From NCBI GenBank assembly GCA_937934655.1, contig CALGZB010000070.1, positions 3,005 through 67,004 of the forward strand: 64,000 nt of DNA. The letters run 5' to 3'. The first letter of the stretch is position 1, and every line of letters begins with the position of its first letter. The notes beneath the pieces were generated by a model. That model was not told the origin of the DNA, did not search any database, and saw only the letters and a program-made list of their open reading frames with translations. The translations under genes and the position numbers were made by a program. Source of the DNA: an uncultured Acidimicrobiales bacterium. GTDB taxonomy: Bacteria > Actinomycetota > Acidimicrobiia > Acidimicrobiales > SHLQ01. Of this stretch, positions 42,372-63,673 are shown in pieces.

Positions 42372-44702
42372 CTATTGCCGCGGGGTGACTCGCAAGATCA
42401 CATCGTTGCGAGCGTCGCCGAGTCCGGAGTTCGAGGTCGTTACGTACAGGTTGCCGTCGGGGCCGAGCACGGGGCTTCGCATCCGCCCGTAGGTGCCAGC
42501 GAGTTCGTCCGGAATGACTTGGCGAACAAAGTTGCCATCGTCATCGAAGAACATCAGACGGAGGCGGCTGTCCTTCAAGGTCAAGACGGCCAGCGCTCCT
42601 TCATAGGAGCCCCACTGCGAACCTTGTAAGAACACCGCACCGCTCGGGGCGACCGTTGGATTCCCCGATGACCAGCGGGCGGCCTGAGCGTCGGGAAACT
42701 TGCTGAAGTCGGTCATTGGGTTGCGGTCTTGTTCGTAATTGGGGAACTCGGGTTCAAAGCCGGGGATGACCACCGGGTCCCATCCGTAGTTGCCGCCGCC
42801 CACCAGTTGGTTCACTTCGTCATCTACGGCTGGCCCGTGCTCGACCGACCACATGTCGCCGGTGCCCGGCCGCAGCGCTAGGCCCTGCACGTTGCGGTGG
42901 CCGTACGTCCAGATCTTTCGAGTCTGGCTATTGGGTGAGTTGAGGAACGGGTTACCCGGCGCAGCGTCGCCAGTGAATCGGTCGATGCGGTACGTCTTGC
43001 CGGCAAGGCGAGTGAGGTCCTGGGGTGCCGGACCTTCGTACCCGTCGCCCGAACCAACAACGAGGTAGCCCTCGCCATCAAAGCGGGTCCGACATCCACC
43101 GTGTCCGGGGTCCTGCCTGACCCTCGCAAGCGGTTCGCCAATGCGAGCGGCTGACCCGCCGTCGGCGGACAGTTGCCAAGCCACCACCACAATGGTGAAC
43201 CGGTCGGTCTGCTGACTCTGGCATGTGTAGAAGCGCCGGTTACTCGAGAACGAAGGGTCGACCACAAGGCTCATCAAGCCCGCGTTTCCTTCTTCGACAA
43301 CATCGCTCAAGTCAGCCTGCACCTGGCTGACCTGGCCATTTGTGCGCCGGATGCTGAGCCGACCTGGCCGTTCGGTAAACAGCATCGACCCGTCGGGGAG
43401 GAACCCAAGGTCCCAGGGCGTATCGATGCCGGTAACCACTTCCGCTACTTCCAACCGCGGTCCCTCGGACCCGGAAGTCGTACCGCCGGCGAATTGGAAG
43501 AACCCTCGGCAGTTGAGCAGATCGGTCTGGAATCGACCGGCGACCTCGCAGCTATCGCCCTGCGCCGACCCGAGCGACACAACCGCCGGATCGGTCGTCG
43601 GGTACGACACGCCGTCGATGACGACGCGCTGCAGCTTCACGTTGCGATCGATTTGTCCCTCAACGTAGAGATCGTTGTTGAACAGAACTCGGACTTGGCC
43701 GGGACGAACGGAAGCGTTGTGCTGATAGGTGTAGCGGGTCCAACGGACCTCGCCGCTCCAGAAGTTTGGCGATTGTGGCAGCCCATAGCGCTGCACACTT
43801 GAGCCATCGATCTCTAGAAAGATCTCTTCGGACCCTTCGAGGCCCGCAGCGAAAAGCTCGATGGTCGACCCTTGTCCACCAGCGTCGGCAGGCTCGACCA
43901 CAATAAGCACCGTGTCGTCACTCGTTGCGCCCTCATCGTCGGTGACCCGTGCCGAGAGTTGGTGGCTGCCCACGGTAAGCGAGACCGTAGCGGTGAGCCC
44001 CGACGCGATTTCTTGTTGACCCTCGAGCCACCGAACCCGTTGGATGCTGCCGTCAGGATCCGAGGCAGTCGCCGACAATCGCACGCTGGCGGTTCCGCTG
44101 GCATCTGCCGTGACGCGCTGGTCCCGACCGGCATTGACGACCGGCGGCACGTTTTCATCTGACGGCGGAATCGTCGACCCGCCCCCGTGGTCCGCGAGAA
44201 AGCTGAAGTACCCGCCGCACGCAAGCACCTCGTCAGCGTTGGATTGCAAAGGCGAACAGGTTCCGTCGGTCCATGCACCCGCTGAACGCACGGTGCTCGA
44301 CTCGGCCTGCACCTCGGTCCCGCCAAGGCGGAACCAATCAACTCGGATGTTTCGATCCTCACCGTTCGCGCTCACACCGTCATTGCGGAACAGCACCCGC
44401 ACATCGGCAAGCGAGAAGCTGGTTGGGTGGGTGTAGTAGTAGTTGCGGTACTCGGGGGCGGACCAGATTTCCTCGGACCGGTGAAGTCGATACGAACGTC
44501 CGACCCGGCCACCGACTTCGACAACCATGATCTCGTCGCCAGCGCTACCGGTAGCGCGAAGAACCAACTGAGTACCTACCGGGTTTGTGCCCTCGGCGCC
44601 CCCGACATCGACCGACGCACCGATACCGAGCAGCAACGCCACGGCGACGGTGAGCAGCACCATGGCTGGGCTGAGCCAACCTCGGGCGATGCTGTTGTCC
44701 AT
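42372..44702 (-). CDS. Secreted PQQ-dependent sugar dehydrogenase (GSDH family) with two CBM60-like modules and a PKD-like domain
   Basis: Signal/TM segment; two (F.ND..DRN..VD/Q) repeats; PPVVNAG.DQ..DPDGSI..VTDDEG; PWDLGFLPDG, HGG, GHRNVQG, EHGP..DEVN..GGNYGW, APSG, GRMR..GPDG. Confidence 0.82.
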   Translation of the reverse strand: MDNSIARGWLSPAMVLLTVAVALLLGIGASVDVGGAEGTNPVGTQLVLRATGSAGDEIMVVEVGGRVGRSYRLHRSEEIWSAPEYRNYYYTHPTSFSLADVRVLFRNDGVSANGEDRNIRVDWFRLGGTEVQAESSTVRSAGAWTDGTCSPLQSNADEVLACGGYFSFLADHGGGSTIPPSDENVPPVVNAGRDQRVTADASGTASVRLSATASDPDGSIQRVRWLEGQQEIASGLTATVSLTVGSHQLSARVTDDEGATSDDTVLIVVEPADAGGQGSTIELFAAGLEGSEEIFLEIDGSSVQRYGLPQSPNFWSGEVRWTRYTYQHNASVRPGQVRVLFNNDLYVEGQIDRNVKLQRVVIDGVSYPTTDPAVVSLGSAQGDSCEVAGRFQTDLLNCRGFFQFAGGTTSGSEGPRLEVAEVVTGIDTPWDLGFLPDGSMLFTERPGRLSIRRTNGQVSQVQADLSDVVEEGNAGLMSLVVDPSFSSNRRFYTCQSQQTDRFTIVVVAWQLSADGGSAARIGEPLARVRQDPGHGGCRTRFDGEGYLVVGSGDGYEGPAPQDLTRLAGKTYRIDRFTGDAAPGNPFLNSPNSQTRKIWTYGHRNVQGLALRPGTGDMWSVEHGPAVDDEVNQLVGGGNYGWDPVVIPGFEPEFPNYEQDRNPMTDFSKFPDAQAARWSSGNPTVAPSGAVFLQGSQWGSYEGALAVLTLKDSRLRLMFFDDDGNFVRQVIPDELAGTYGRMRSPVLGPDGNLYVTTSNSGLGDARNDVILRVTPRQ

Positions 44703-44786
44703 TTTTCGACTCTAGATCGGGGCTCGCAGCCGCCGACGGACCTTTTGAGCGTTTCGAAGCGCCCGGCTTTCTGTATGGTGAAACCG

Positions 44787-45593
44787 ATGCTGATCGCACA
44801 GATCTCCGACCCTCACATCACCGAAGATCTCGCCGATCTTCCCGTCGATCCTCGGCACCGACTCGAAAACGTCATCGATGCACTGAATGCGTCGACGGTG
44901 CCACTCGATCTCGTCATAGCGACCGGTGACCTCACCAACAACGGCACGGCCGACGAGTATGCCGTGCTGAGAGGCCATCTCGAGCGAATCACTGCCCGTG
45001 TATTGGTGATGCCTGGCAACCACGACGATGCCCCTCTTATGCGAAGCGAGTTGGCCGACTACCTTCCCGCAAACGCCGCCGACAACCATCTGAGCTACAC
45101 GATCGACGAGTACTCGCTCCGTCTGGTGTGTCTCGACACATCACTCGTGGGTCTTGCTGGCGGTGTGTTCGACGCCGAACGCGAAGCCTGGCTCGACAAC
45201 ACGTTGGCCGCGACCGACACGCCGACGATCGTGTTCATGCACCACCCGGCGTTCAACTCGGGTATGGGCTGGATGGACACCATGAGCCTCGACAACAAAG
45301 AAGAGTTTGCGGCAGTCATCGCCAAACATCCCCATGTTGGGACCGTCGCTTCGGGGCACCTGCACCGCTCTCTCACCACCCGAATCGCCCACGCAGTAGC
45401 GGTCGGTGCGCCATCGACAACCCATCAGTTAGCGCTCGACCTCAACCCCAACCAGGCCGCGCTTTCGCTTGAGCCATCGGGATACCTGCTCCACGCTTGG
45501 GACGGATCCACGATCATGACCCATGCGGTTATCGTGGGCGATTTCGACATCATGCGGATGGATCACTTCGTCGACATGATGAAGCCCGGCTAA
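44787..45593 (+). CDS. Metallophosphoesterase, CpdA/Icc/GpdQ-like
   Basis: IAQISDPH, TGDLT, PGNHD, MHHP, GHLHR; TATGGT 7 nt before ATG 44787. Confidence 0.87.
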   Translation: MLIAQISDPHITEDLADLPVDPRHRLENVIDALNASTVPLDLVIATGDLTNNGTADEYAVLRGHLERITARVLVMPGNHDDAPLMRSELADYLPANAADNHLSYTIDEYSLRLVCLDTSLVGLAGGVFDAEREAWLDNTLAATDTPTIVFMHHPAFNSGMGWMDTMSLDNKEEFAAVIAKHPHVGTVASGHLHRSLTTRIAHAVAVGAPSTTHQLALDLNPNQAALSLEPSGYLLHAWDGSTIMTHAVIVGDFDIMRMDHFVDMMKPG

Positions 45594-52563: not shown

Positions 52564-52699
52564 CGGCTTTCGGCAGACGTGCCGAAATAGGGCCGACGAG
52601 ATACGGCAGAAGAAAGAGGGCTGCAGAAAGAGGGAATAGGTGAGCGCCACGCCGGGTTGCCGGGTGACCTGTCCGAATCCTTGGAGATCTCTGCAACCA

Positions 52700-53305
52700 A
52701 TGCGACCAACCCCTTTTGCTGCCGGCGCCCTCGCTGCCGGCCTTTTGCTCTCTGCTTGTGGGGGCGGCGGTGAAACGACAAGTACCGGCGCAACACCTGA
52801 TGCCGGAACCGAAACCAGCTCTGGTGCGAGCCCGGCCGACCTGGCAGAGGAAAACGCCCAATCCTTACAAAGCACCGACGACGGCCGCACCAGCGAGGTT
52901 CTCAATATCGCCGATGGGTCAATCACCAGTCTGCAAGAGGCCGTCACTGGCGACCGTCCCGTATTGCTCTGGTTCTGGGCACCTCATTGACCGACCTGCC
53001 GGCGCGAAGGCCCGGCCGTTGAGCAGTTTGCTCAAGCCAACATCGACAAGATTCAGATCATCGGCATCGGAGCCCAGGACGACTTCGGTCAAGCCCAGGA
53101 CTTCTTGGGCGACACCGGCGTCGCCACGCCTGAGATGCTGTACGACCCAACCTTCAACACGTGGCGGGCCTTTGGTGTCACGACAAACTCCCAAATGAAA
53201 CTGCTCACCCCAGACCTCGACGCGAGCTCTGACCTTCTGTTCGGCTTCGGCGAGGATGAGCAAGCAGCCATCCTTGACGCGCTGCCAGCCTTTGCCCCGC
53301 AGTAA
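52700..53305 (+). CDS. Thioredoxin-fold (DsbF/Mpt53/TlpA-like) lipoprotein, probable selenoprotein with UxxC
   Basis: Lipobox LLSAC; VLLWFWAPH-TGA(52988-52990)-PTCRREG continues in frame to TAA 53305; TGA aligns with the first Cys of WFWAPWCPTC. Confidence 0.75.
52998..53016 (+). promoter_or_regulatory. Possible SECIS hairpin after the in-frame TGA
   Basis: GCCGG-C-GC-GAAG-GC-CCGGC starting 8 nt after TGA, G-initiated apical loop. Confidence 0.4.
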
Positions 53306-57203: not shown

Positions 57204-58319
57204 TTAGCGCTTGTAGTTGGGGATCACGAATGGCAGGTCGGAAACATGGCACGCCACTCGTTTTCCGCGCACGTCGGCCTCGAGTTGGGTTCCAACGACT
57301 GATGCTGCAGCCGATACGTACCCCATGGCGACGGGACCATCGACCGATGCCCCAAAACCGCCACTGGTAACGACGCCGACCAATTCGCCATCGGCGTTGA
57401 AGAGTTCGTTACCTGGCCGAATCGGCCGTCGCTGAGCGGTTCCGATACCAACCCGGCTGCGGGTCGGTCCGTCGGCCTGCTGCTGCGCCACAACGTCGGC
57501 TCCGGGATAGTCGCCGGCCTCGCGGCGCCGTTTTGGAACCGCCCACATCAGGCCAGCTTCAACGGGTGTGGTTTCTTCATCAATGTCGCTGCCGTACAGG
57601 CAAAGGCCAGCTTCGAGACGAAGACTGTCGCGGGCGGCGAGCCCGGCGAACTCAACGCGTTCGTCGGCCAAGAGCTTTTCGGTGACGCCAACCACCATGT
57701 CGGCCGGCAAGGCCAGCTCGAACCCATCTTCGCCCGTGTAGCCGCTGCGGGTGATTCGGATATCAGCAGAACCAGCAGGCGTGGTGATTGCGACGATGCC
57801 GCCCGTCATGAACCCAAGGCCGGATACATCAATACCGAGGTCGGTAAGAACCGCTTCTGACTTTGGGCCTTGAAGCGCAATGAGATGCAGGTCGTCGCGT
57901 TCGATGACTTCGACACCGGCAAGGGCTTGCAGGTGAGCCACGTCGTGGGCAACTCGCGAGGCGTTGACAACAACACTCACTCGTCCATCGGGCATCGCCC
58001 AAGCGATGAGATCGTCGAGGATGCCACCTTGGTCGTTGGTGAAAAACGTGTACCGAAGCTTGTTCTCGGCGAGCGTGGTGATGCCGCCCGGGACCAACGT
58101 TTCGAGCGCTTCAGCTGGGGCGTCGCCGACGAGGTCGACGACACGCATGTGCGACACATCGAAGATCGACGACGATTGACGCGTATGAAGATGTTCGGCG
58201 ATGGCACCTTGGCCGTCATAGGACAATGGCATCGAGTAGCCGGCGAATGGCCCGAACTTTGCGCCCCGGGTTTCGTGAAGCGCATGTAAGAGCGTGGTCT
58301 CGAGTTCGGCGTCAGCCAT
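57204..58319 (-). CDS. gcvT: Glycine cleavage aminomethyltransferase T
   Basis: EHLHTR..IFDVSHM, GILDDL, ALQGP, RSGYTGEDGFE, GLAARDSLRLEAGLCLYG, TPVEAGL, TSGG..AMGYV. Confidence 0.9.
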   Translation of the reverse strand: MADAELETTLLHALHETRGAKFGPFAGYSMPLSYDGQGAIAEHLHTRQSSSIFDVSHMRVVDLVGDAPAEALETLVPGGITTLAENKLRYTFFTNDQGGILDDLIAWAMPDGRVSVVVNASRVAHDVAHLQALAGVEVIERDDLHLIALQGPKSEAVLTDLGIDVSGLGFMTGGIVAITTPAGSADIRITRSGYTGEDGFELALPADMVVGVTEKLLADERVEFAGLAARDSLRLEAGLCLYGSDIDEETTPVEAGLMWAVPKRRREAGDYPGADVVAQQQADGPTRSRVGIGTAQRRPIRPGNELFNADGELVGVVTSGGFGASVDGPVAMGYVSAAASVVGTQLEADVRGKRVACHVSDLPFVIPNYKR

Positions 58320-59160
58320 CAGTGTCTCCGTGAACGTACTGCCAGCCGAAGCGACCCTTAATGCAAAGGTTGCCCCACGTAACCGAGTGGTCGTCGGGGG
58401 AAGTGACCTTCACGATGCGCTCGTCCTGGGTGTGAAGCTCAAGGTTACAGCCGACACCGCAATACGAACAGACCGTGGTGGTCACCGTCTGGTCTTCCGG
58501 GCGCCAGTTGGCCACCTGGCGAAGATCAAACTCGGTTTTGAACTGCAGGGCATTGGTAGGACAAACCGCCACGCAGTTCCCGCAGTAAACACATGCCGAG
58601 TCAGGCAGGGTTACATCGAACTCGGTTGCGATGCGAGCACCGAACCCGCGGCCCGACATCGAGATGGCGTACGTGTGCTGAGCATCGTCGCCGCAGGCCG
58701 AGACGCACTTGTAGCAAAGGACACATTTGTCATAATCGCGAACGTAGAGATCATCTTGGATCTTGATCTCTTCGTTCATCCGCTCCGGGTTTTCGTAGCG
58801 GTCGGGTTGCGCGCCGTACTTAGCGCTCCACTCGTTGAGCTCGTCAGCCTCGCTCAGGTCCACACCAGATCCCAGGAACTCAAGAACCATCTTGCGACTG
58901 TGGTTCACGCGATCCGAATCGGTGCTAACAACCATTCCTTCTTCGACCGGTCGCGAACACGACGGCACGAGTGTGCGCGACCCTTCGAGCTCGACCACAC
59001 AAACCCGGCAGGCGTTGACCGGCGTCAGGTTAGGCCCGTAACAAATCGTTGGCGTCTCGACTCCGGCCGCGGTGCATGCGTCGAGAATCGTAGATCCCTC
59101 GGGCACCGCTACATCGTTGCCGTCGACCGAGATGGTCACCGCTACTTCGGTACTAGTCAT
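58312..59160 (-). CDS. Formate dehydrogenase Fe-S subunit (free-standing N-terminal part of FdsA/FdhA)
   Basis: 2Fe-2S (C..ACRVC..C), CVLCYKCVSAC, CVYCGNCVAVCP and C-terminal CSYCGVGC..LCIKGRFG (molybdopterin-enzyme Fe4S4 domain). Confidence 0.85.
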   Translation of the reverse strand: MTSTEVAVTISVDGNDVAVPEGSTILDACTAAGVETPTICYGPNLTPVNACRVCVVELEGSRTLVPSCSRPVEEGMVVSTDSDRVNHSRKMVLEFLGSGVDLSEADELNEWSAKYGAQPDRYENPERMNEEIKIQDDLYVRDYDKCVLCYKCVSACGDDAQHTYAISMSGRGFGARIATEFDVTLPDSACVYCGNCVAVCPTNALQFKTEFDLRQVANWRPEDQTVTTTVCSYCGVGCNLELHTQDERIVKVTSPDDHSVTWGNLCIKGRFGWQYVHGDTDG

Positions 59161-60899
59161 TGGTTTGCTCCGATCAAGCCCAGAGCGAGTGCGCTCTTGA
59201 TTGCCGATGCAGCCGTGTGGCCGAGACCACAGATCGACGCATCGGCCATTACTTGCACCATGTCTTCATGAAGAACCCGCTTCTCGTCGGGCATTGGTTT
59301 GTGGCCGATTGCCACGATCATCTCGTGCTGGCGAATTGCACCAACCCGACATGGCACGCATTGTCCGCAGGATTCGTTCTTGAAGAACTCGGCGATGCGT
59401 TGGCAAATGTCAGCCATGTCGTCGTCGGTGTTGAACACCATGACCACACCGGAGCCCAGCGTGGTGCCGGCTTCGCGTGTGGCTTCTAGTGTCAGCGGCA
59501 GGTCCATGGAGTCGCTCGTGACAAAGCTGCCCGCTGCCCCACCTAGGAGCACTGCCTGCACCTCACCAGAAGCGCCTCCGGCGGCCTCGATGATCTCGCC
59601 AAGGGTTGCACCGAATGCGTGCTCGTACAGCCCTGGCGCTCCGACACGGCCTGATACGCAGAACAGGCGAGTGCCTGGCGACCGTTCGGTGCCGATCGAC
59701 CGGTATGCCGCTGCGCCATCGAGAACGATAGGCAGCACATTGAGCAGCGTCTCAGGGTTGTTGATGACGGTGGGCTGGTCGAAAAGTCCGTTGGTGGTGG
59801 GGAACGGCGGCTTGTTGCGTGGCTCGCCCCGGAAGCCCTCGAGTGAGTTAAAGAGTGCGGTCTCTTCGCCGCAGATGTAGGCACCGGCGCCGCGTCGCAC
59901 CTCGAGGTGAAACTCCTTGCCACTTCCCGCAACGTCCTCGCCAAGCAGACCAGCATCGCGTGACGCCATGATGGCGTTCTCGAGACGCCCGGTTGCCTGC
60001 GGATACTCCCCGCGAATGTAGATCCAGCCGTTGGTGGCACCCGTCGTGACCGCGGCAATGGTCATTGCCTCAATCAAGGCGAACGGGTCGTGCTCCATGA
60101 CCATGCGGTCCTTGAAGGTTCCTGGTTCGCTCTCGTCGCAGTTTGCCACAATGTGCTTCTGGTCGCCGTCGGCGTCGCGAACCGCCGTCCACTTGATGCC
60201 GGTAGGAAACGCTGCGCCACCTCGACCTGAAAGACCAGAGTCGGAGATGGCAGCGAGGACGCCATCGGCGCCGAGTTCGAGGGCCTTGGTGAGCGCCTCG
60301 TAACCACCATGCTCACGGTACGAATCGAGGCTGGTCGGGTCGACAACACCGATCCGCTGGAGAAGCCGAAGAGAGTCGTCGCCCGCTTGAGGAAGGACGA
60401 AGGCGTCATCATCGGCCGGAACCACATCGGGGCGCTTGCGCCCCTGGATGAAGACCGCCGGTGGTCGTTCGCACTGGCCAAGGCACGGGCTTCGATGCAC
60501 GTGTTTCCCTTCGGCCTCGAGCGACGCGATGAGATCGTCGGCGCCGTCGATGCGGCATGCGGGGTCGATGCAAACGTGTACGACGTCGTCGTCGTGACCG
60601 GGTTCGGTGTCGACTCGGAACATCTCATAGAAGCTGGCCACGCCGTAGGACTCGGCTGGCGGCACCTGAAGGACTTCTGACAGGTAGTTCAGGCCGCCCG
60701 GGCTAATCCAGCCCGACTCCTTCTGCAAGGCATGTAACGCCGGTAAGAGGAGGTGGCGCAGTCCGCGGCGGCGACTGGCCCCGCCACGAACAATCCGTTC
60801 GCCCTCGATCGTGAGGGCGCTGTTCTCGCCAAGCGCAAGATCGATGGCGTTACGTTCACCGTCGTTCGCGATGGCGTCGGTGAAATGAAGGTCGGCCAT
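59157..60899 (-). CDS. Fused NuoE-NuoF-like diaphorase subunit (FdsG+FdsB-like)
   Basis: LLPALHALQ..GWIS, C....C / CLGQC 2Fe-2S; GRGGAAFPTG, DESEPGTFKDR, GAGAYICGEETAL, ESCGQCVPCR, SICGLG. Confidence 0.88.
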   Translation of the reverse strand: MADLHFTDAIANDGERNAIDLALGENSALTIEGERIVRGGASRRRGLRHLLLPALHALQKESGWISPGGLNYLSEVLQVPPAESYGVASFYEMFRVDTEPGHDDDVVHVCIDPACRIDGADDLIASLEAEGKHVHRSPCLGQCERPPAVFIQGRKRPDVVPADDDAFVLPQAGDDSLRLLQRIGVVDPTSLDSYREHGGYEALTKALELGADGVLAAISDSGLSGRGGAAFPTGIKWTAVRDADGDQKHIVANCDESEPGTFKDRMVMEHDPFALIEAMTIAAVTTGATNGWIYIRGEYPQATGRLENAIMASRDAGLLGEDVAGSGKEFHLEVRRGAGAYICGEETALFNSLEGFRGEPRNKPPFPTTNGLFDQPTVINNPETLLNVLPIVLDGAAAYRSIGTERSPGTRLFCVSGRVGAPGLYEHAFGATLGEIIEAAGGASGEVQAVLLGGAAGSFVTSDSMDLPLTLEATREAGTTLGSGVVMVFNTDDDMADICQRIAEFFKNESCGQCVPCRVGAIRQHEMIVAIGHKPMPDEKRVLHEDMVQVMADASICGLGHTAASAIKSALALGLIGANQ

Positions 60900-60903
60900 G
60901 TCG

Positions 60904-62850
60904 CTATGCCTCTGCTGCTACGAGCGGCTCGACGCGAATCGAGGCCGCCTTAAATTCGGCAGTGCCGGATTTCTTGTCCCACGCATCGGTGGTGAGGACG
61001 TTGGTATCGACAAGGTCGGGAAAGTGGAACGTGGTGAACGTAAGCCCCTCGACGAGCGAGTCATCGATACGGATTCGCATTTCCACGGAACCTCGAGGTG
61101 ACGACACCAGCGCCATGTCGCCGTCGTTCAAGCCCAAGCGTTGTGCGTCGGTCTCATGCATATCGAGCGCATCGCCGTAGCGAATTGGTGAACTGAAACC
61201 ACCCGATTGCACACCGGTGTTGTAGCTATCGAGGGCCCGACCTGTGGTGAGGCGAAGCGGGAACTCCTCGGTGAGCTCTTCCTTTGGTCCCTGATGGACC
61301 ACCGGGATGAACGGAGCCGGCTCACGACCTTCGAGATCGTCGGCCCAGAGCCATCCGTGCAAGAACGGCGAACCGGGGTGATCGAGTGCGGGACACGGCC
61401 ATTGCAACCCACCGGTCTCCTCGAGACGATCCCACGACATACCCAGGTGCATTGGCGATAGCGAACGAAGCTCGTCCCACAGCTGCTCTGGATCTGGGGT
61501 GCCCCAGTCGTGGCCCATCCGGGAAGCAAGGTCGAACAAGATATCGACGTCGTGGCGGGCCTCACCTGGTGGTGGCACTGCGGCCCGAACCCGTTGCACG
61601 CGTCGCTCCGAAGAGGTCACCGTTCCGTCAGATTCTGCCCAAGCGACCGACGCAGGGAGAACAACATCGGCCATCTCGGCGGTTCGGGTCATAAAGATGT
61701 CCTGCACAACCAGAAGGTCGAGGCCAGACAACAGCTTTCGAGCGTGTTGAATATCGGCCTCAGAATCAGCCGGGTTTTCGCCAAGCACATAGGCCGCTTT
61801 GATTTCGCCACGTTCCATTGCTTCGAACATGAGCGTGAGGTGCTTGCCCGGAACCGGATTGAGGTCGACACCCCAGGTAGCTTCAAACTTTCCGCGTGCC
61901 GCATCGTCGTCGATGTTCTGAAAGCCCGGAAGTTTGTTTGGCAGCGAGCCCATGTCGCCGCCGCCCTGCACATTGTTCTGACCACGGAGCGGCACCAAGC
62001 CACTCCCCCAGCGGCCGATATGGCCGGTGAGCAGCGCCAGGCTGCAGAGGGCCAACACGTTGTCGACCGCGTTGTGGTGCTCGGTGATACCGAGGGTCCA
62101 CAGAATCTGAGCGGACTCAGCCGTGGCGTAATCGTGCGCCAGTTCGCGAATCGCGTCTTCTGGAAGGCCAGTGAGCTGGCTCGTAAATTCGAGCGTGTAT
62201 GGCTCGACGTTTTCTTTGTACGCCTCAAACCCCTGTGTGGAGTGGGCAATGAACTCTTTGTTGGCCAGACCAGCAGCAATGATCTCGCGACCGATGCCAT
62301 TAGCCAGCGCAACATCGCTGCCCAGGTTGAGTCCGAGCCACACATCGGCAAACTTCGCCGATGACGTGCGTCGGGGATCGACGGCGAACATCTTGGCGCC
62401 GTTGTCGATGCCTTTCAGCAGGTGATGAAAGAAGATGGGGTGCGCGTTGCGGGCATTTGAGCCCCAGAGCACGATGAGATCAGTTTCCTCAATCTCGGTG
62501 TAGGAGGACGTTCCGCCACCCGCACCAAACACTGTCGCCAGACCGACGACCGAAGGAGCGTGTCAAGTTCGATTACAGGAGTCGATGTTGTTGGTACCCA
62601 GCACAACACGACCGAACTTCTGTGCGGCGTAGTTCATTTCGTTCGTAGCCTTCGAACAGCTGAACATTGCGAACCCCTCGGGTCCGAGTTCGTCGTTAAC
62701 CTTGGTGAAACCTTCAACGACGCGGGTAAGAGCTTCATCCCAACTCGCCGGACGAAGTTCACCGTCTTCGCGCACCATTGGTGTGGTGAGCCTCTTCTTC
62801 GGAAGGAACTGCTTTGTTCCCCACTTGGACATGGACTTCGGCTTCGACAC
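60904..62850 (-). CDS. fdhF: Selenocysteine-containing Mo/W-bisPGD formate dehydrogenase catalytic subunit
   Basis: Track ORFs 62563-62892 and 60904-62532 are one frame: NNIDSCNRT-TGA-HAPSVVGL; also LRGQNNVQG, QDIFMT.TA, TSSERRVQ, LTTGR, AEFK; GAGGT RBS before GTG 62850. Confidence 0.9.
62534..62550 (-). promoter_or_regulatory. SECIS element of the formate dehydrogenase gene
   Basis: GTCGTC-GGTCT-GGCGAC hairpin; GGTCT at +19 to +23 after TGA, the same register as the E. coli fdhF SECIS. Confidence 0.8.
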
Positions 62851-62998
62851 GTCGACACCTCTTGTTTTGCGCGTGGTTGTTGTCGCGTACATATCTCGCG
62901 GCTTTGTCAGTCTAGTTACCCGATGTCACAGGAAGAGACGCGAAACGACAGCGGTTTCCACCCAATGGAAGCCCTTGCAGGGCGGCCCAGAGAGACTG

Positions 62999-63673
62999 CT
63001 ACGAGGGCACTTGCCAGTCGATTGGTTTCCGACCGGCCGACGTAAGTGCAGCGTTGGTTTGCGAGAACGGCGCACTGCCAAAGAACCCCCGATGAGCCGA
63101 GAGCGGTGACGGATGCGGCGCCTCGAGAATCACGTGGCGCTCGGAGTCGATGAGCGACTTCTTCTTGCGCGCATGAGCTCCCCACAACAAGAACACCACC
63201 ATCTCGGCTTTGGCGCTTACCGCCTTGATGACCTCGTCGGAAAAGACCTCCCACCCTTGCCCTTGGTGCGAAGCCGCGGCCCCAGAACGGACCGTCAACG
63301 TGGTGTTGAGGAGCAAAACTCCCTGTTGTGCCCAGCTTTCAAGACTCCCGTGATCAGGCGGAGCGAAACCCACGTCGGTCACGAGCTCCTTGTACATGTT
63401 GGCCAAAGAAGGCGGCACCCGGACCCCCGGCTTCACGCTGAAACAGAGGCCGTGAGCTTGGCCGGGTCCGTGGTAGGGGTCCTGGCCAAGAATCATTACC
63501 TTTGTCTCGGCATAGCTGGTGAGCTGAAAGGCCGCGAACACGTCCTTCTGCGGCGGGAACACTTCGCCGGATAGTCGTTCTGCGGCGACGAACTCCTGCA
63601 ACGTCGACCAGTAGGGTTTCTCGAACTCGCTGCGCAGGATGGGGTCCCAGCCGGCGGCGATCGTTGCAGTCAC
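62999..63673 (-). CDS. ung: Uracil-DNA glycosylase family 1
   Basis: [34 protein letters not shown]. Confidence 0.96.

Follow-up and report, generated by a model that had tools for sequence, protein, structure and literature searches.

Thioredoxin-fold selenoproteins with a UxxC active site, U being selenocysteine (Sec), have been known since 2004–2008. In its accessible text, the Global Ocean Sampling (GOS) survey gives 321 selenoprotein sequences for its family Trx-like 1 (COG0526, UxxC), 225 for Prx-like 1 and 68 for Prx-like 3 (PMC2398784), and the accessible part of PMC13188914 lists a 'Prx-like thiol:disulfide oxidoreductase' (PF00578; UxxC, UxxU) and a 'UGC-containing TlpA family' among selenoproteins. 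For Actinomarina, a member of the marine Acidimicrobiia, the Sec machinery, a Sec-form selD and ~5 predicted selenoproteins per genome are given in the part available of a 2026 preprint (10.64898/2026.04.03.716425). Here we describe a redoxin gene located at 52700..53305 in a 64,000-nucleotide (nt) stretch of contig CALGZB010000070.1, hereafter the window, from an uncultured Acidimicrobiales bacterium whose genome (the source genome) comprises 4.74 Mb in 308 contigs and is 90% complete. With one TGA codon read as Sec, its product is best explained as a lipid-anchored extracytoplasmic thioredoxin-fold oxidoreductase, predicted to be exported and lipidated.

The family is not new, its kind having already been catalogued in ocean metagenomes. 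In the accessible supplement of the GOS survey (PMC2398784), read JCVI_READ_1093012207452 is placed after the heading '#Trx-like 1' and ahead of '#Trx-like 2'. This read carries a lipobox (..ATACGG..) together with VTGDRPVLLWYWAPHUPTCRGHAAEVEQFA, and 24 of 31 residues, by a by-eye count, are those of the window protein; on this likeness the two appear to be orthologous. The initial annotation of the window had presented the gene as a hidden selenoprotein, a description that is not supported, this evidently orthologous read having been listed under Trx-like 1 in the 2008 supplement. GOS Trx-like 1 and the window protein are both marine and both have UxxC at a thioredoxin-fold active site. In its accessible text, PMC2398784 treats Trx-like 1 as a broad Trx-like class, and no mention of a lipoprotein anchor, a likeness to DsbE/DsbF, a Ser at the cis-Pro position or a two-hairpin RNA was seen there; these four features were likewise not met in a limited literature search, from which we do not claim that they are absent from print.

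A redoxin frame with an in-frame TGA

When TGA is read as U, the ATG at 52700 opens a 201-codon frame closed by the TAA at 53303–53305. The sole in-frame TGA (52988–52990) yields WFWAPH-U97-PTC100, whereas translation table 11 splits the gene into two open reading frames (ORFs) of the same frame, 52640..52990, with a product ending in VLLWFWAPH, and 53105..53305. The proposal of the initial annotation, that these pieces form one frame continuous through a TGA at the attacking Cys, was thus borne out. We consider it about 90% probable that 52700..53305 is a real selenoprotein gene, in whose product Sec would be inserted at residue 97.

The search for selA, selB, selC and selD that the initial annotation had recommended found all four in the source genome, i.e. 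the full set that serves as the criterion for a bacterial selenoprotein gene. The selA product scored 330.8 bits; selB adjoins selA, scored 285.8 bits (cut-off 242.25) and encodes a SelB-wing_3 domain, its frame being truncated by the contig end; selD carries a TGA of its own in the motif GAG-U-GCK; and there is one tRNA-Sec (selC) with the anticodon TCA. Elsewhere in the genome TGA is an ordinary stop, ending 592 of the 1676 stop-to-stop frames of at least 400 codons, and several orthologues of the redoxin gene themselves terminate in TGA.

Among the 24 other genomes belonging to the same taxonomic family as the source, 21 gave a best match at E <= 1e-20, every one with an internal TGA. This TGA occupies the first position of [AS]PH-U-[PS][TV]C in all 20 loci fetched, at identities from 77% down to ~37%. 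Across the order, an evenly drawn sample of 251 genomes included 59 with matches at E <= 1e-20, a genome often holding several copies; 72 of the 77 match rows had TGA (one of them from the unpublished genome G065, used nowhere else) and five did not. Taking the family and order sets together, TGA stands at the UxxC codon in 43 of the 43 orthologue sequences read, from which one locus with a Cys form (L073) was excluded.

Cys forms of the protein exist as well. A scan for the pattern WFWAPH-C-PxC, built with Cys at the Sec site and hence biased to Cys by design, detected 17 loci (30–44% identity) in other metagenome-assembled genomes of Actinomycetota, named Acidimicrobiales, Acidimicrobiaceae, Microthrixaceae, Sporichthya/Sporichthyaceae, Paraconexibacter and others. 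In these loci, as in database proteins and in DsbF, the residue aligned to U97 is the first Cys of CxxC. Selenoproteins are classically recognised by such alternation of Cys and Sec at a redox site (PMC1794560, accessible part). The full-length relatives in the protein database are of the Cys form only (26–44% identity); the database otherwise holds pieces of 114–164 residues that cover a quarter to half of the query, some called 'hypothetical protein', and these are the products of gene callers working on Sec forms. The initial annotation had proposed a search for homologues in which TGA and Cys alternate, with conservation on both sides of the TGA, and had supposed that pipelines would call the gene a pseudogene; the data show the alternation, and a gene that is broken by gene callers.

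The splitting of the frame under table 11, and the truncated pieces to which such genes are reduced in the databases, are what would be seen if the TGA were a nonsense mutation that ends translation and the downstream half were a decaying pseudogene. We regard the probability of this as practically nil. The TGA is found at the same codon in all 43 orthologues, down to ~35% identity, and selection has not relaxed beyond it: among 13 closer orthologues (78 pairs, with synonymous divergence, dS, of ~0.9 or more), the median ratio of nonsynonymous to synonymous divergence (dN/dS) was 0.213 downstream of the TGA (residues 98–195, 67 pairs computable) and 0.221 upstream (residues 64–96, 65 pairs computable), and these 13 genes contain no further stops or frameshifts. 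Relaxed selection downstream had been named beforehand as an observation that would overturn the selenoprotein reading.

Nor is the TGA an assembly error, which is ruled out by the agreement of contigs from other studies. The codon is unaltered in contigs of other marine sequencing runs that span it: a contig of run X2, which shares its study with the likely source, covers the whole stretch with identical letters at 52988–52990, and contigs of two further studies (X4 and X6) cover the codon with no other letter. Related organisms are represented in the runs from other studies by contigs that map onto the stretch only at ~52970–53056, which comprises the active site and both hairpins described below; depth peaks at 31–45 in X4 over this interval, where conservation at the DNA level is the best within the redoxin gene.

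Seawater contains dissolved selenium in nanomolar amounts. As the organism lives in seawater and the inserted residue is deduced from the sequence, the UGA might be read through not, or not only, as Sec, with Trp or Cys inserted by near-cognate decoding, or with Cys carried on tRNA(Sec) at times of selenium scarcity. This appears very improbable, given the full Sec machinery, the use of TGA as a normal stop elsewhere in the genome, the presence in Sec forms specifically of hairpins that fit the consensus for the Sec insertion sequence (SECIS), and the alternation of Cys and Sec at the redox site that typifies selenoproteins (PMC1794560).

Two hairpins downstream of the TGA

According to the accessible part of PMC13188914, the bacterial SECIS consensus has i) a loop of 3–9 nt, ii) a G within the first two positions of the loop, with G or U as the usual next letter, iii) a distance of 16–37 nt from the UGA, and iv) a minimum free energy (MFE) of -7.5 kcal/mol or lower. 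Every Sec form read has two hairpins downstream of its TGA. Hairpin 1 is the G+C-rich hairpin that the initial annotation had placed 8 nt downstream of the TGA; it is present, starting after 7 nt. Its loop, GAAG in the source gene, is variable (27 loop sequences in 43 genes, CACG and AAGG included), and since its register shifts, so that a fixed register leaves no more than 58.1% of cells paired, it was scored per sequence.

Hairpin 2 has the family form U/C-GAGC-AGUUY-GCUC-R, and its loop, 34 nt past the UGA, holds G-U-U in 43 of 43 genes, with the G-U at +39/+40. Among 42 distinct sequences, pair 33–47 is CG in 33 and UA in 9, and pair 35–45 is AU in 39, GC in 2 and CG in 1; pairs 34–46 and 36–44 are invariant, and zero unpaired cells occur at any of these four pairs. 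Pairing over the hairpin amounts to 86.7%, vs 19–48% for slid partners, and its covariation score was reached by none of 500 shuffles, a figure that is not a probability because the sequences are kin. The covariation at 33–47 couples a third codon position (GUU/GUC) with an amino-acid change (CAA, Gln; CGA, Arg).

Both hairpins belong to the Sec forms. At equal G+C (0.674 vs 0.677, with one spurious locus, L051, dropped), hairpin 1 had a mean of -11.8 kcal/mol in the 43 Sec forms vs -5.0 in the 17 Cys forms, and hairpin 2 a mean of -9.0 vs -3.5 kcal/mol. The residues E-Q-F-A are fixed in Sec forms and not kept by Cys forms, a fixation that marks RNA constraint on the coding region. The exact hairpin-2 motif has five hits in the source genome, and as only that of the redoxin gene follows the in-frame TGA of a recognisable gene, the element is family-specific.

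Hairpin 2 shares with the bSECISearch consensus (PMC13188914, accessible part) an apical loop of 5 nt whose second position is G, with U next, and its 6–7 bp stem and 34 nt from UGA to loop lie within the limits. It departs from that consensus in having its spacer filled by a second, obligatory-looking hairpin. These comparisons point to hairpin 2 as the likely binding site of SelB, with hairpin 1 as a helper of which only the structure would matter; the hairpin noticed by the initial annotation is thus probably not the SelB site. That annotation had also suggested a relaxed or second type of SECIS. No such type is needed, as the hairpin it saw lacks a conserved loop, and hairpin 2, with its AGUUY loop and covariation, fits the published consensus.

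The opposite assignment, in which hairpin 1 acts as the SECIS and hairpin 2 has no part in it, would place the element where that of E. coli fdhF lies, with its loop at ~+19–22; in the source gene this loop begins with G, and hairpin 1 is specific to Sec forms. We nevertheless consider it unlikely, because the loop is unconserved, the register shifts, the 15 nt to the loop fall below the 16–37 nt of the consensus, and it is hairpin 2, not hairpin 1, that holds the invariant G-U-U.

With hairpin 2 serving as the SelB site, SelB carrying Sec-tRNA(Sec) would be recruited by the mRNA just downstream of the UGA during translation. A similar arrangement occurs in selD. In the source genome this gene (C283:1064) has two adjoining hairpins after its UGA, as in the redoxin gene. 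selD is a selenoprotein gene here and in 18 relatives read (loci L076–L100), and MFE folds gave the two-hairpin layout for most of the 19 Sec-form genes, with GUG, GUC or GUU as the loop of the second hairpin at ~+37; the stems show compensatory changes, and the hairpins are absent from the one Cys-form selD read. A helper followed by a conserved hairpin thus appears, on comparison of these sequences, to be common to the redoxin and selD genes of the lineage.

A tentative extension, which we hold to be doubtful, is that some selenoprotein mRNAs of the order, namely those of the DsbE/F-like lipoprotein family and selD, use a bipartite SECIS. Judging from positions only, the helper hairpin (~+11 to +29), free in loop and register, would fold away ~18 nt of spacer and so place the conserved hairpin, whose loop is N-G-U-N with the G-U at +37 to +40, at an effective distance like that in the formate dehydrogenase (FDH) gene of the source genome, where the G-U lies at +23/+24. 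If true, the layout would represent a class of bacterial SECIS architecture not yet described and would account for elements whose spacing is close to the permitted maximum.

The predicted lipoprotein and its possible redox role

The N-terminus of the redoxin reads M-R-P..AAGLL-L-S-A-C20 and matches the lipobox [LVI][ASTVI][GAS]C, which is found in 19 of 20 orthologues, the twentieth being truncated where its contig stops; the source genome encodes both Lgt and LspA. The linker that follows has a dN of 0.39–1.13, vs 0.10–0.34 for the domain. The domain matches Pfam Redoxin (PF08534) with 42.4 bits (cut-off 26.6), and PF00578 (AhpC-TSA) and Thioredoxin were also matched, whereas the curated NCBIfam cut-offs were missed for DsbE (TIGR00385, 35.3 vs 123.15 bits), TlpA (NF047696, 25 vs 230 bits), ResA (NF002854, 19.2 vs 170 bits) and StoA. 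The protein is therefore outside the named NCBIfam DsbE, TlpA and ResA subfamilies.

An AlphaFold2 model built on a 27-row alignment has a mean pLDDT of 89.6 (>=92 at residues 41–200, ~60 at residues 1–40), and in it U97-P-T-C100 directly precedes helix 98–113. In the profile comparison, the solved structures that came closest are those of M. tuberculosis DsbF (3ios, E 1.3e-30) and DsbE/MPT53 (1lu4, E 2.5e-22), which are also the best by fold (TM-score on the target 0.83 and 0.79, respectively); the Foldseek probability to DsbF, DsbE and ResA is 1.00. Further fold neighbours are ResA, the pneumococcal lipoproteins Etrx1/2, the PilB N-terminal domain and TlpA. Assignment of the gene to lipoproteins of the DsbE/DsbF/TlpA kind, made initially from the lipobox and from a DsbF-like motif, is supported by the lipobox (LLSA-C20), by the Redoxin match and by the likeness to 3ios and 1lu4, the former of which carries WFWAPWCPTC at the aligned place.

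The Q-P of DsbF and DsbE forms the cis-Pro loop opposite the active site, which is conserved in the thioredoxin-like fold. The initial annotation was right that this Pro is replaced in the window protein, which has N163-S164 at this place; a tie between the replacement and the use of Sec does not stand. Of the 43 Sec forms, 23 have N-S at this place (from the family of the source organism and two others), 13 have Q-P and 7 were unread, and two Cys-form database proteins have Q-S. As 13 of the 43 Sec forms keep Q-P, the change from Pro to Ser is a trait of a sub-lineage and no corollary of Sec.

The proposed course is that the pre-protein would be exported, after which Lgt would attach the lipid to Cys20 and LspA would remove the signal peptide, so that the domain would hang on a ~40-residue flexible tether at the outer face of the membrane. 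There the selenolate of U97 would attack disulfides of substrates, or sulfenic or other oxidised groups, and Cys100 would resolve the selenenylsulfide. Possible partners encoded in the source genome are two CcdA/DsbD_TM proteins and one DsbB; VKOR was not found in this 90%-complete genome.

As to the direction of electron flow, we lean slightly toward a reductant fed by CcdA rather than an oxidant of the DsbE/F type. DsbE and DsbF of M. tuberculosis are described as oxidases, and since they are the closest solved relatives and the source genome has one DsbB gene, a disulfide-forming oxidant like them, re-oxidised through DsbB, is a credible alternative whose chances fall somewhat below even. 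It is opposed by the two CcdA genes, by the failure to find VKOR, and by the fold neighbours ResA, Etrx1/2, TlpA and the PilB N-terminal domain, all of which are reductants; moreover, on general chemical grounds, a selenolate would be advantageous mainly as a nucleophile and would resist over-oxidation.

Several points weigh against the preferred explanation as a whole. The relatives are kin, and counts across them overstate independence. Hairpin 2 of the source gene has an MFE of -7.4 kcal/mol (-6.8 to -12.6 over the 43 orthologues), just short of the published limit of -7.5. The 73 nt after the TGA fold no better than shuffles (z -0.85; 38 of 200 as good), for which reason only the comparative RNA data carry weight, and no Rfam match at E <= 10 was obtained in 52900–53150. 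The conserved cis-Pro of the fold is missing, S164 standing in the Pro column, and no redox partner is adjacent to the redoxin gene.

Around the orthologues, CcdA, ResB, Msr and cytochrome genes were not seen at 38 loci, for which 75 of 92 candidate neighbouring ORFs were scanned, the other 17 having been dropped by eye for overlap with the redoxin gene or its antisense. A histidine kinase and a DUF6576 membrane protein are syntenic with the redoxin gene no further than the genus. Over the order as a whole, the neighbour that recurs is gcvT (9 of 38 loci, from many families), and its proximity probably reflects ancient vertical descent and not a link in function. Chorismate synthase is found beside gcvT in three loci.

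Other Sec genes and comparison with known systems

The features of the window and the other Sec genes are collected in the table.

Table. Positions of the redoxin gene, its elements and other genes discussed (window positions, unless a contig or genome handle precedes the coordinates)
Feature	Position	Strand	Remarks
DsbE/DsbF-like lipoprotein selenoprotein, coding sequence	52700..53305	+	201 codons + TAA stop
Signal peptide with lipobox L-S-A-C	52700..52759	+	Cys20 (52757–52759), predicted lipidated N-terminus; from sequence
Low-complexity tether, residues 21–63	52760..52888	+	G/T/S/A/E-rich; poorly conserved, gappy alignment
TGA, predicted Sec97	52988..52990	+	N-terminal (attacking) position of U-P-T-C; frame reading; 43/43 orthologues
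Cys100, resolving Cys of UxxC	52997..52999	+	Column invariant in protein alignment
Hairpin 1	52998..53016	+	Columns 11–29 from U of UGA; starts 7 nt past TGA; G+C-rich
Hairpin 2, likely SelB-binding SECIS	53019..53035	+	Columns 32–48; 6-bp stem, loop A-G-U-U-U
N163-S164 at the Q-(cis)P place of DsbF/DsbE	53186..53191	+	Before strand 165–169; profile alignment to 3ios/1lu4, DSSP of model
gcvT (glycine cleavage T protein)	57204–58319	-	3.9 kb from redoxin gene
Sec FDH alpha subunit	60904..63174	-	Start 62892 guessed; TGA 62563–62565, motif CNRT-U-HAPS
DsbE/F-like redoxin paralogue	C163:17882–18343	+	Active-site TGA
DsbE/F-like redoxin paralogue	C300:7047–7463	-	Active-site TGA
DsbE/F-like redoxin paralogue	C215:5919–6224	+	Active-site TGA
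DsbE/F-like redoxin paralogue	C265:310–621	-	Active-site TGA
UGC-type Prx-like/TlpA-family genes	C58:62798–63817; C117:95–1270; C141:15452–16627	+	339–391 aa; W-U-G-C or Y-U-G-C
Tandem redoxin clusters in relatives	G021:C187:605–3194; G024:C253:3700–6413; G093:C1:2010704–2012277; G134:C1:1305963–1306995

The Sec-containing FDH that the initial annotation had placed ~9.5 kb away was confirmed. Its TGA lies 9.57 kb downstream of that of the redoxin gene, and its SECIS has the loop GGUCU at +22–26. On the minus strand at 57409–63174, the FDH frame stands beside a NuoF-like flavoprotein frame (59142..60899), past which a further frame has Cys motifs of the 2Fe-2S/4Fe-4S kind; the cluster looks like an NAD-linked FDH operon. 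Another minus-strand frame, ~9.5 kb upstream (42372–45425), was considered as FDH and rejected on reading its translation. The 776-residue frame at 42372–44702 (minus strand) has a signal-like N-terminus and two similar N-terminal modules, and its C-terminal part resembles, by eye, soluble glucose/sorbosone dehydrogenases.

The source genome also contains four DsbE/F-like paralogues with an active-site TGA. A lipobox is present in three of them, Pro or Arg stands at the cis-Pro place in all, and each has a single hairpin with a GGUC loop at ~+30–33. The C300 paralogue reads U-P-F-U and may hold two Sec residues. Three UGC-type genes, in whose N-termini a lipobox was not seen, have the loops CGGGU, AGGUU and CGUGU at +24–28. 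They were spotted in a genome-wide scan for Sec codons (motif plus codon-usage score), which was used for this purpose only; its 3686 candidates were swamped by antisense frames, and the redoxin gene itself ranked 174th. By these sequence assignments the source genome would hold at least 10 Sec genes, i.e. those for FDH and selD, five DsbE/F-like and three UGC-type. In several relatives, two or three TGA-bearing redoxin paralogues lie side by side, and such tandem sets would be clusters of genes for extracytoplasmic selenoproteins.

The findings overturn no current knowledge and are of moderate value for annotation and for SECIS layout. As standard gene calling breaks the gene, the proteomes of this abundant order of marine actinobacteria lack a whole set of surface redox enzymes. 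A selenol exposed outside the membrane would be a plausible answer to the over-oxidation of exposed thiols in oxygenated seawater, and envelope redox maintenance would thereby be tied to the supply of selenium. The 43 Sec and 17 Cys forms constitute a clean set of natural sequences from which to learn how coding regions accommodate a SECIS, and their comparison yields a testable two-hairpin layout common with selD.

Compared with described systems, the window protein shares with the Prx-like and UGC groups of PMC13188914, as far as its accessible part describes them, a redoxin fold of the TlpA/AhpC-TSA superfamily and Sec at the first active-site position, but those groups are different subfamilies. 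The source genome does hold genes akin to them, namely the UxxU paralogue and the three UGC-type genes. Etrx1 and Etrx2 (4hqs, 4hqz, 2yp6) are, as is predicted for the window protein, lipoprotein-anchored, surface-exposed TlpA-like thioredoxins and are among its structural neighbours. They serve as a model of an extracytoplasmic reductant fed by CcdA. Unlike the window protein they use Cys and keep the cis-Pro, and the window gene is without an adjoining MsrAB gene. With DsbF (3ios) and DsbE/MPT53 (1lu4) of M. tuberculosis, to which its identity is ~25%, the window protein shares the motif W-F-W-x-P-x-[C/U]-P-x-C and, with export predicted for the window protein, an extracytoplasmic location in Actinomycetota; it differs from both in having Sec for the first Cys, His for the preceding Trp and N-S for Q-(cis)P.

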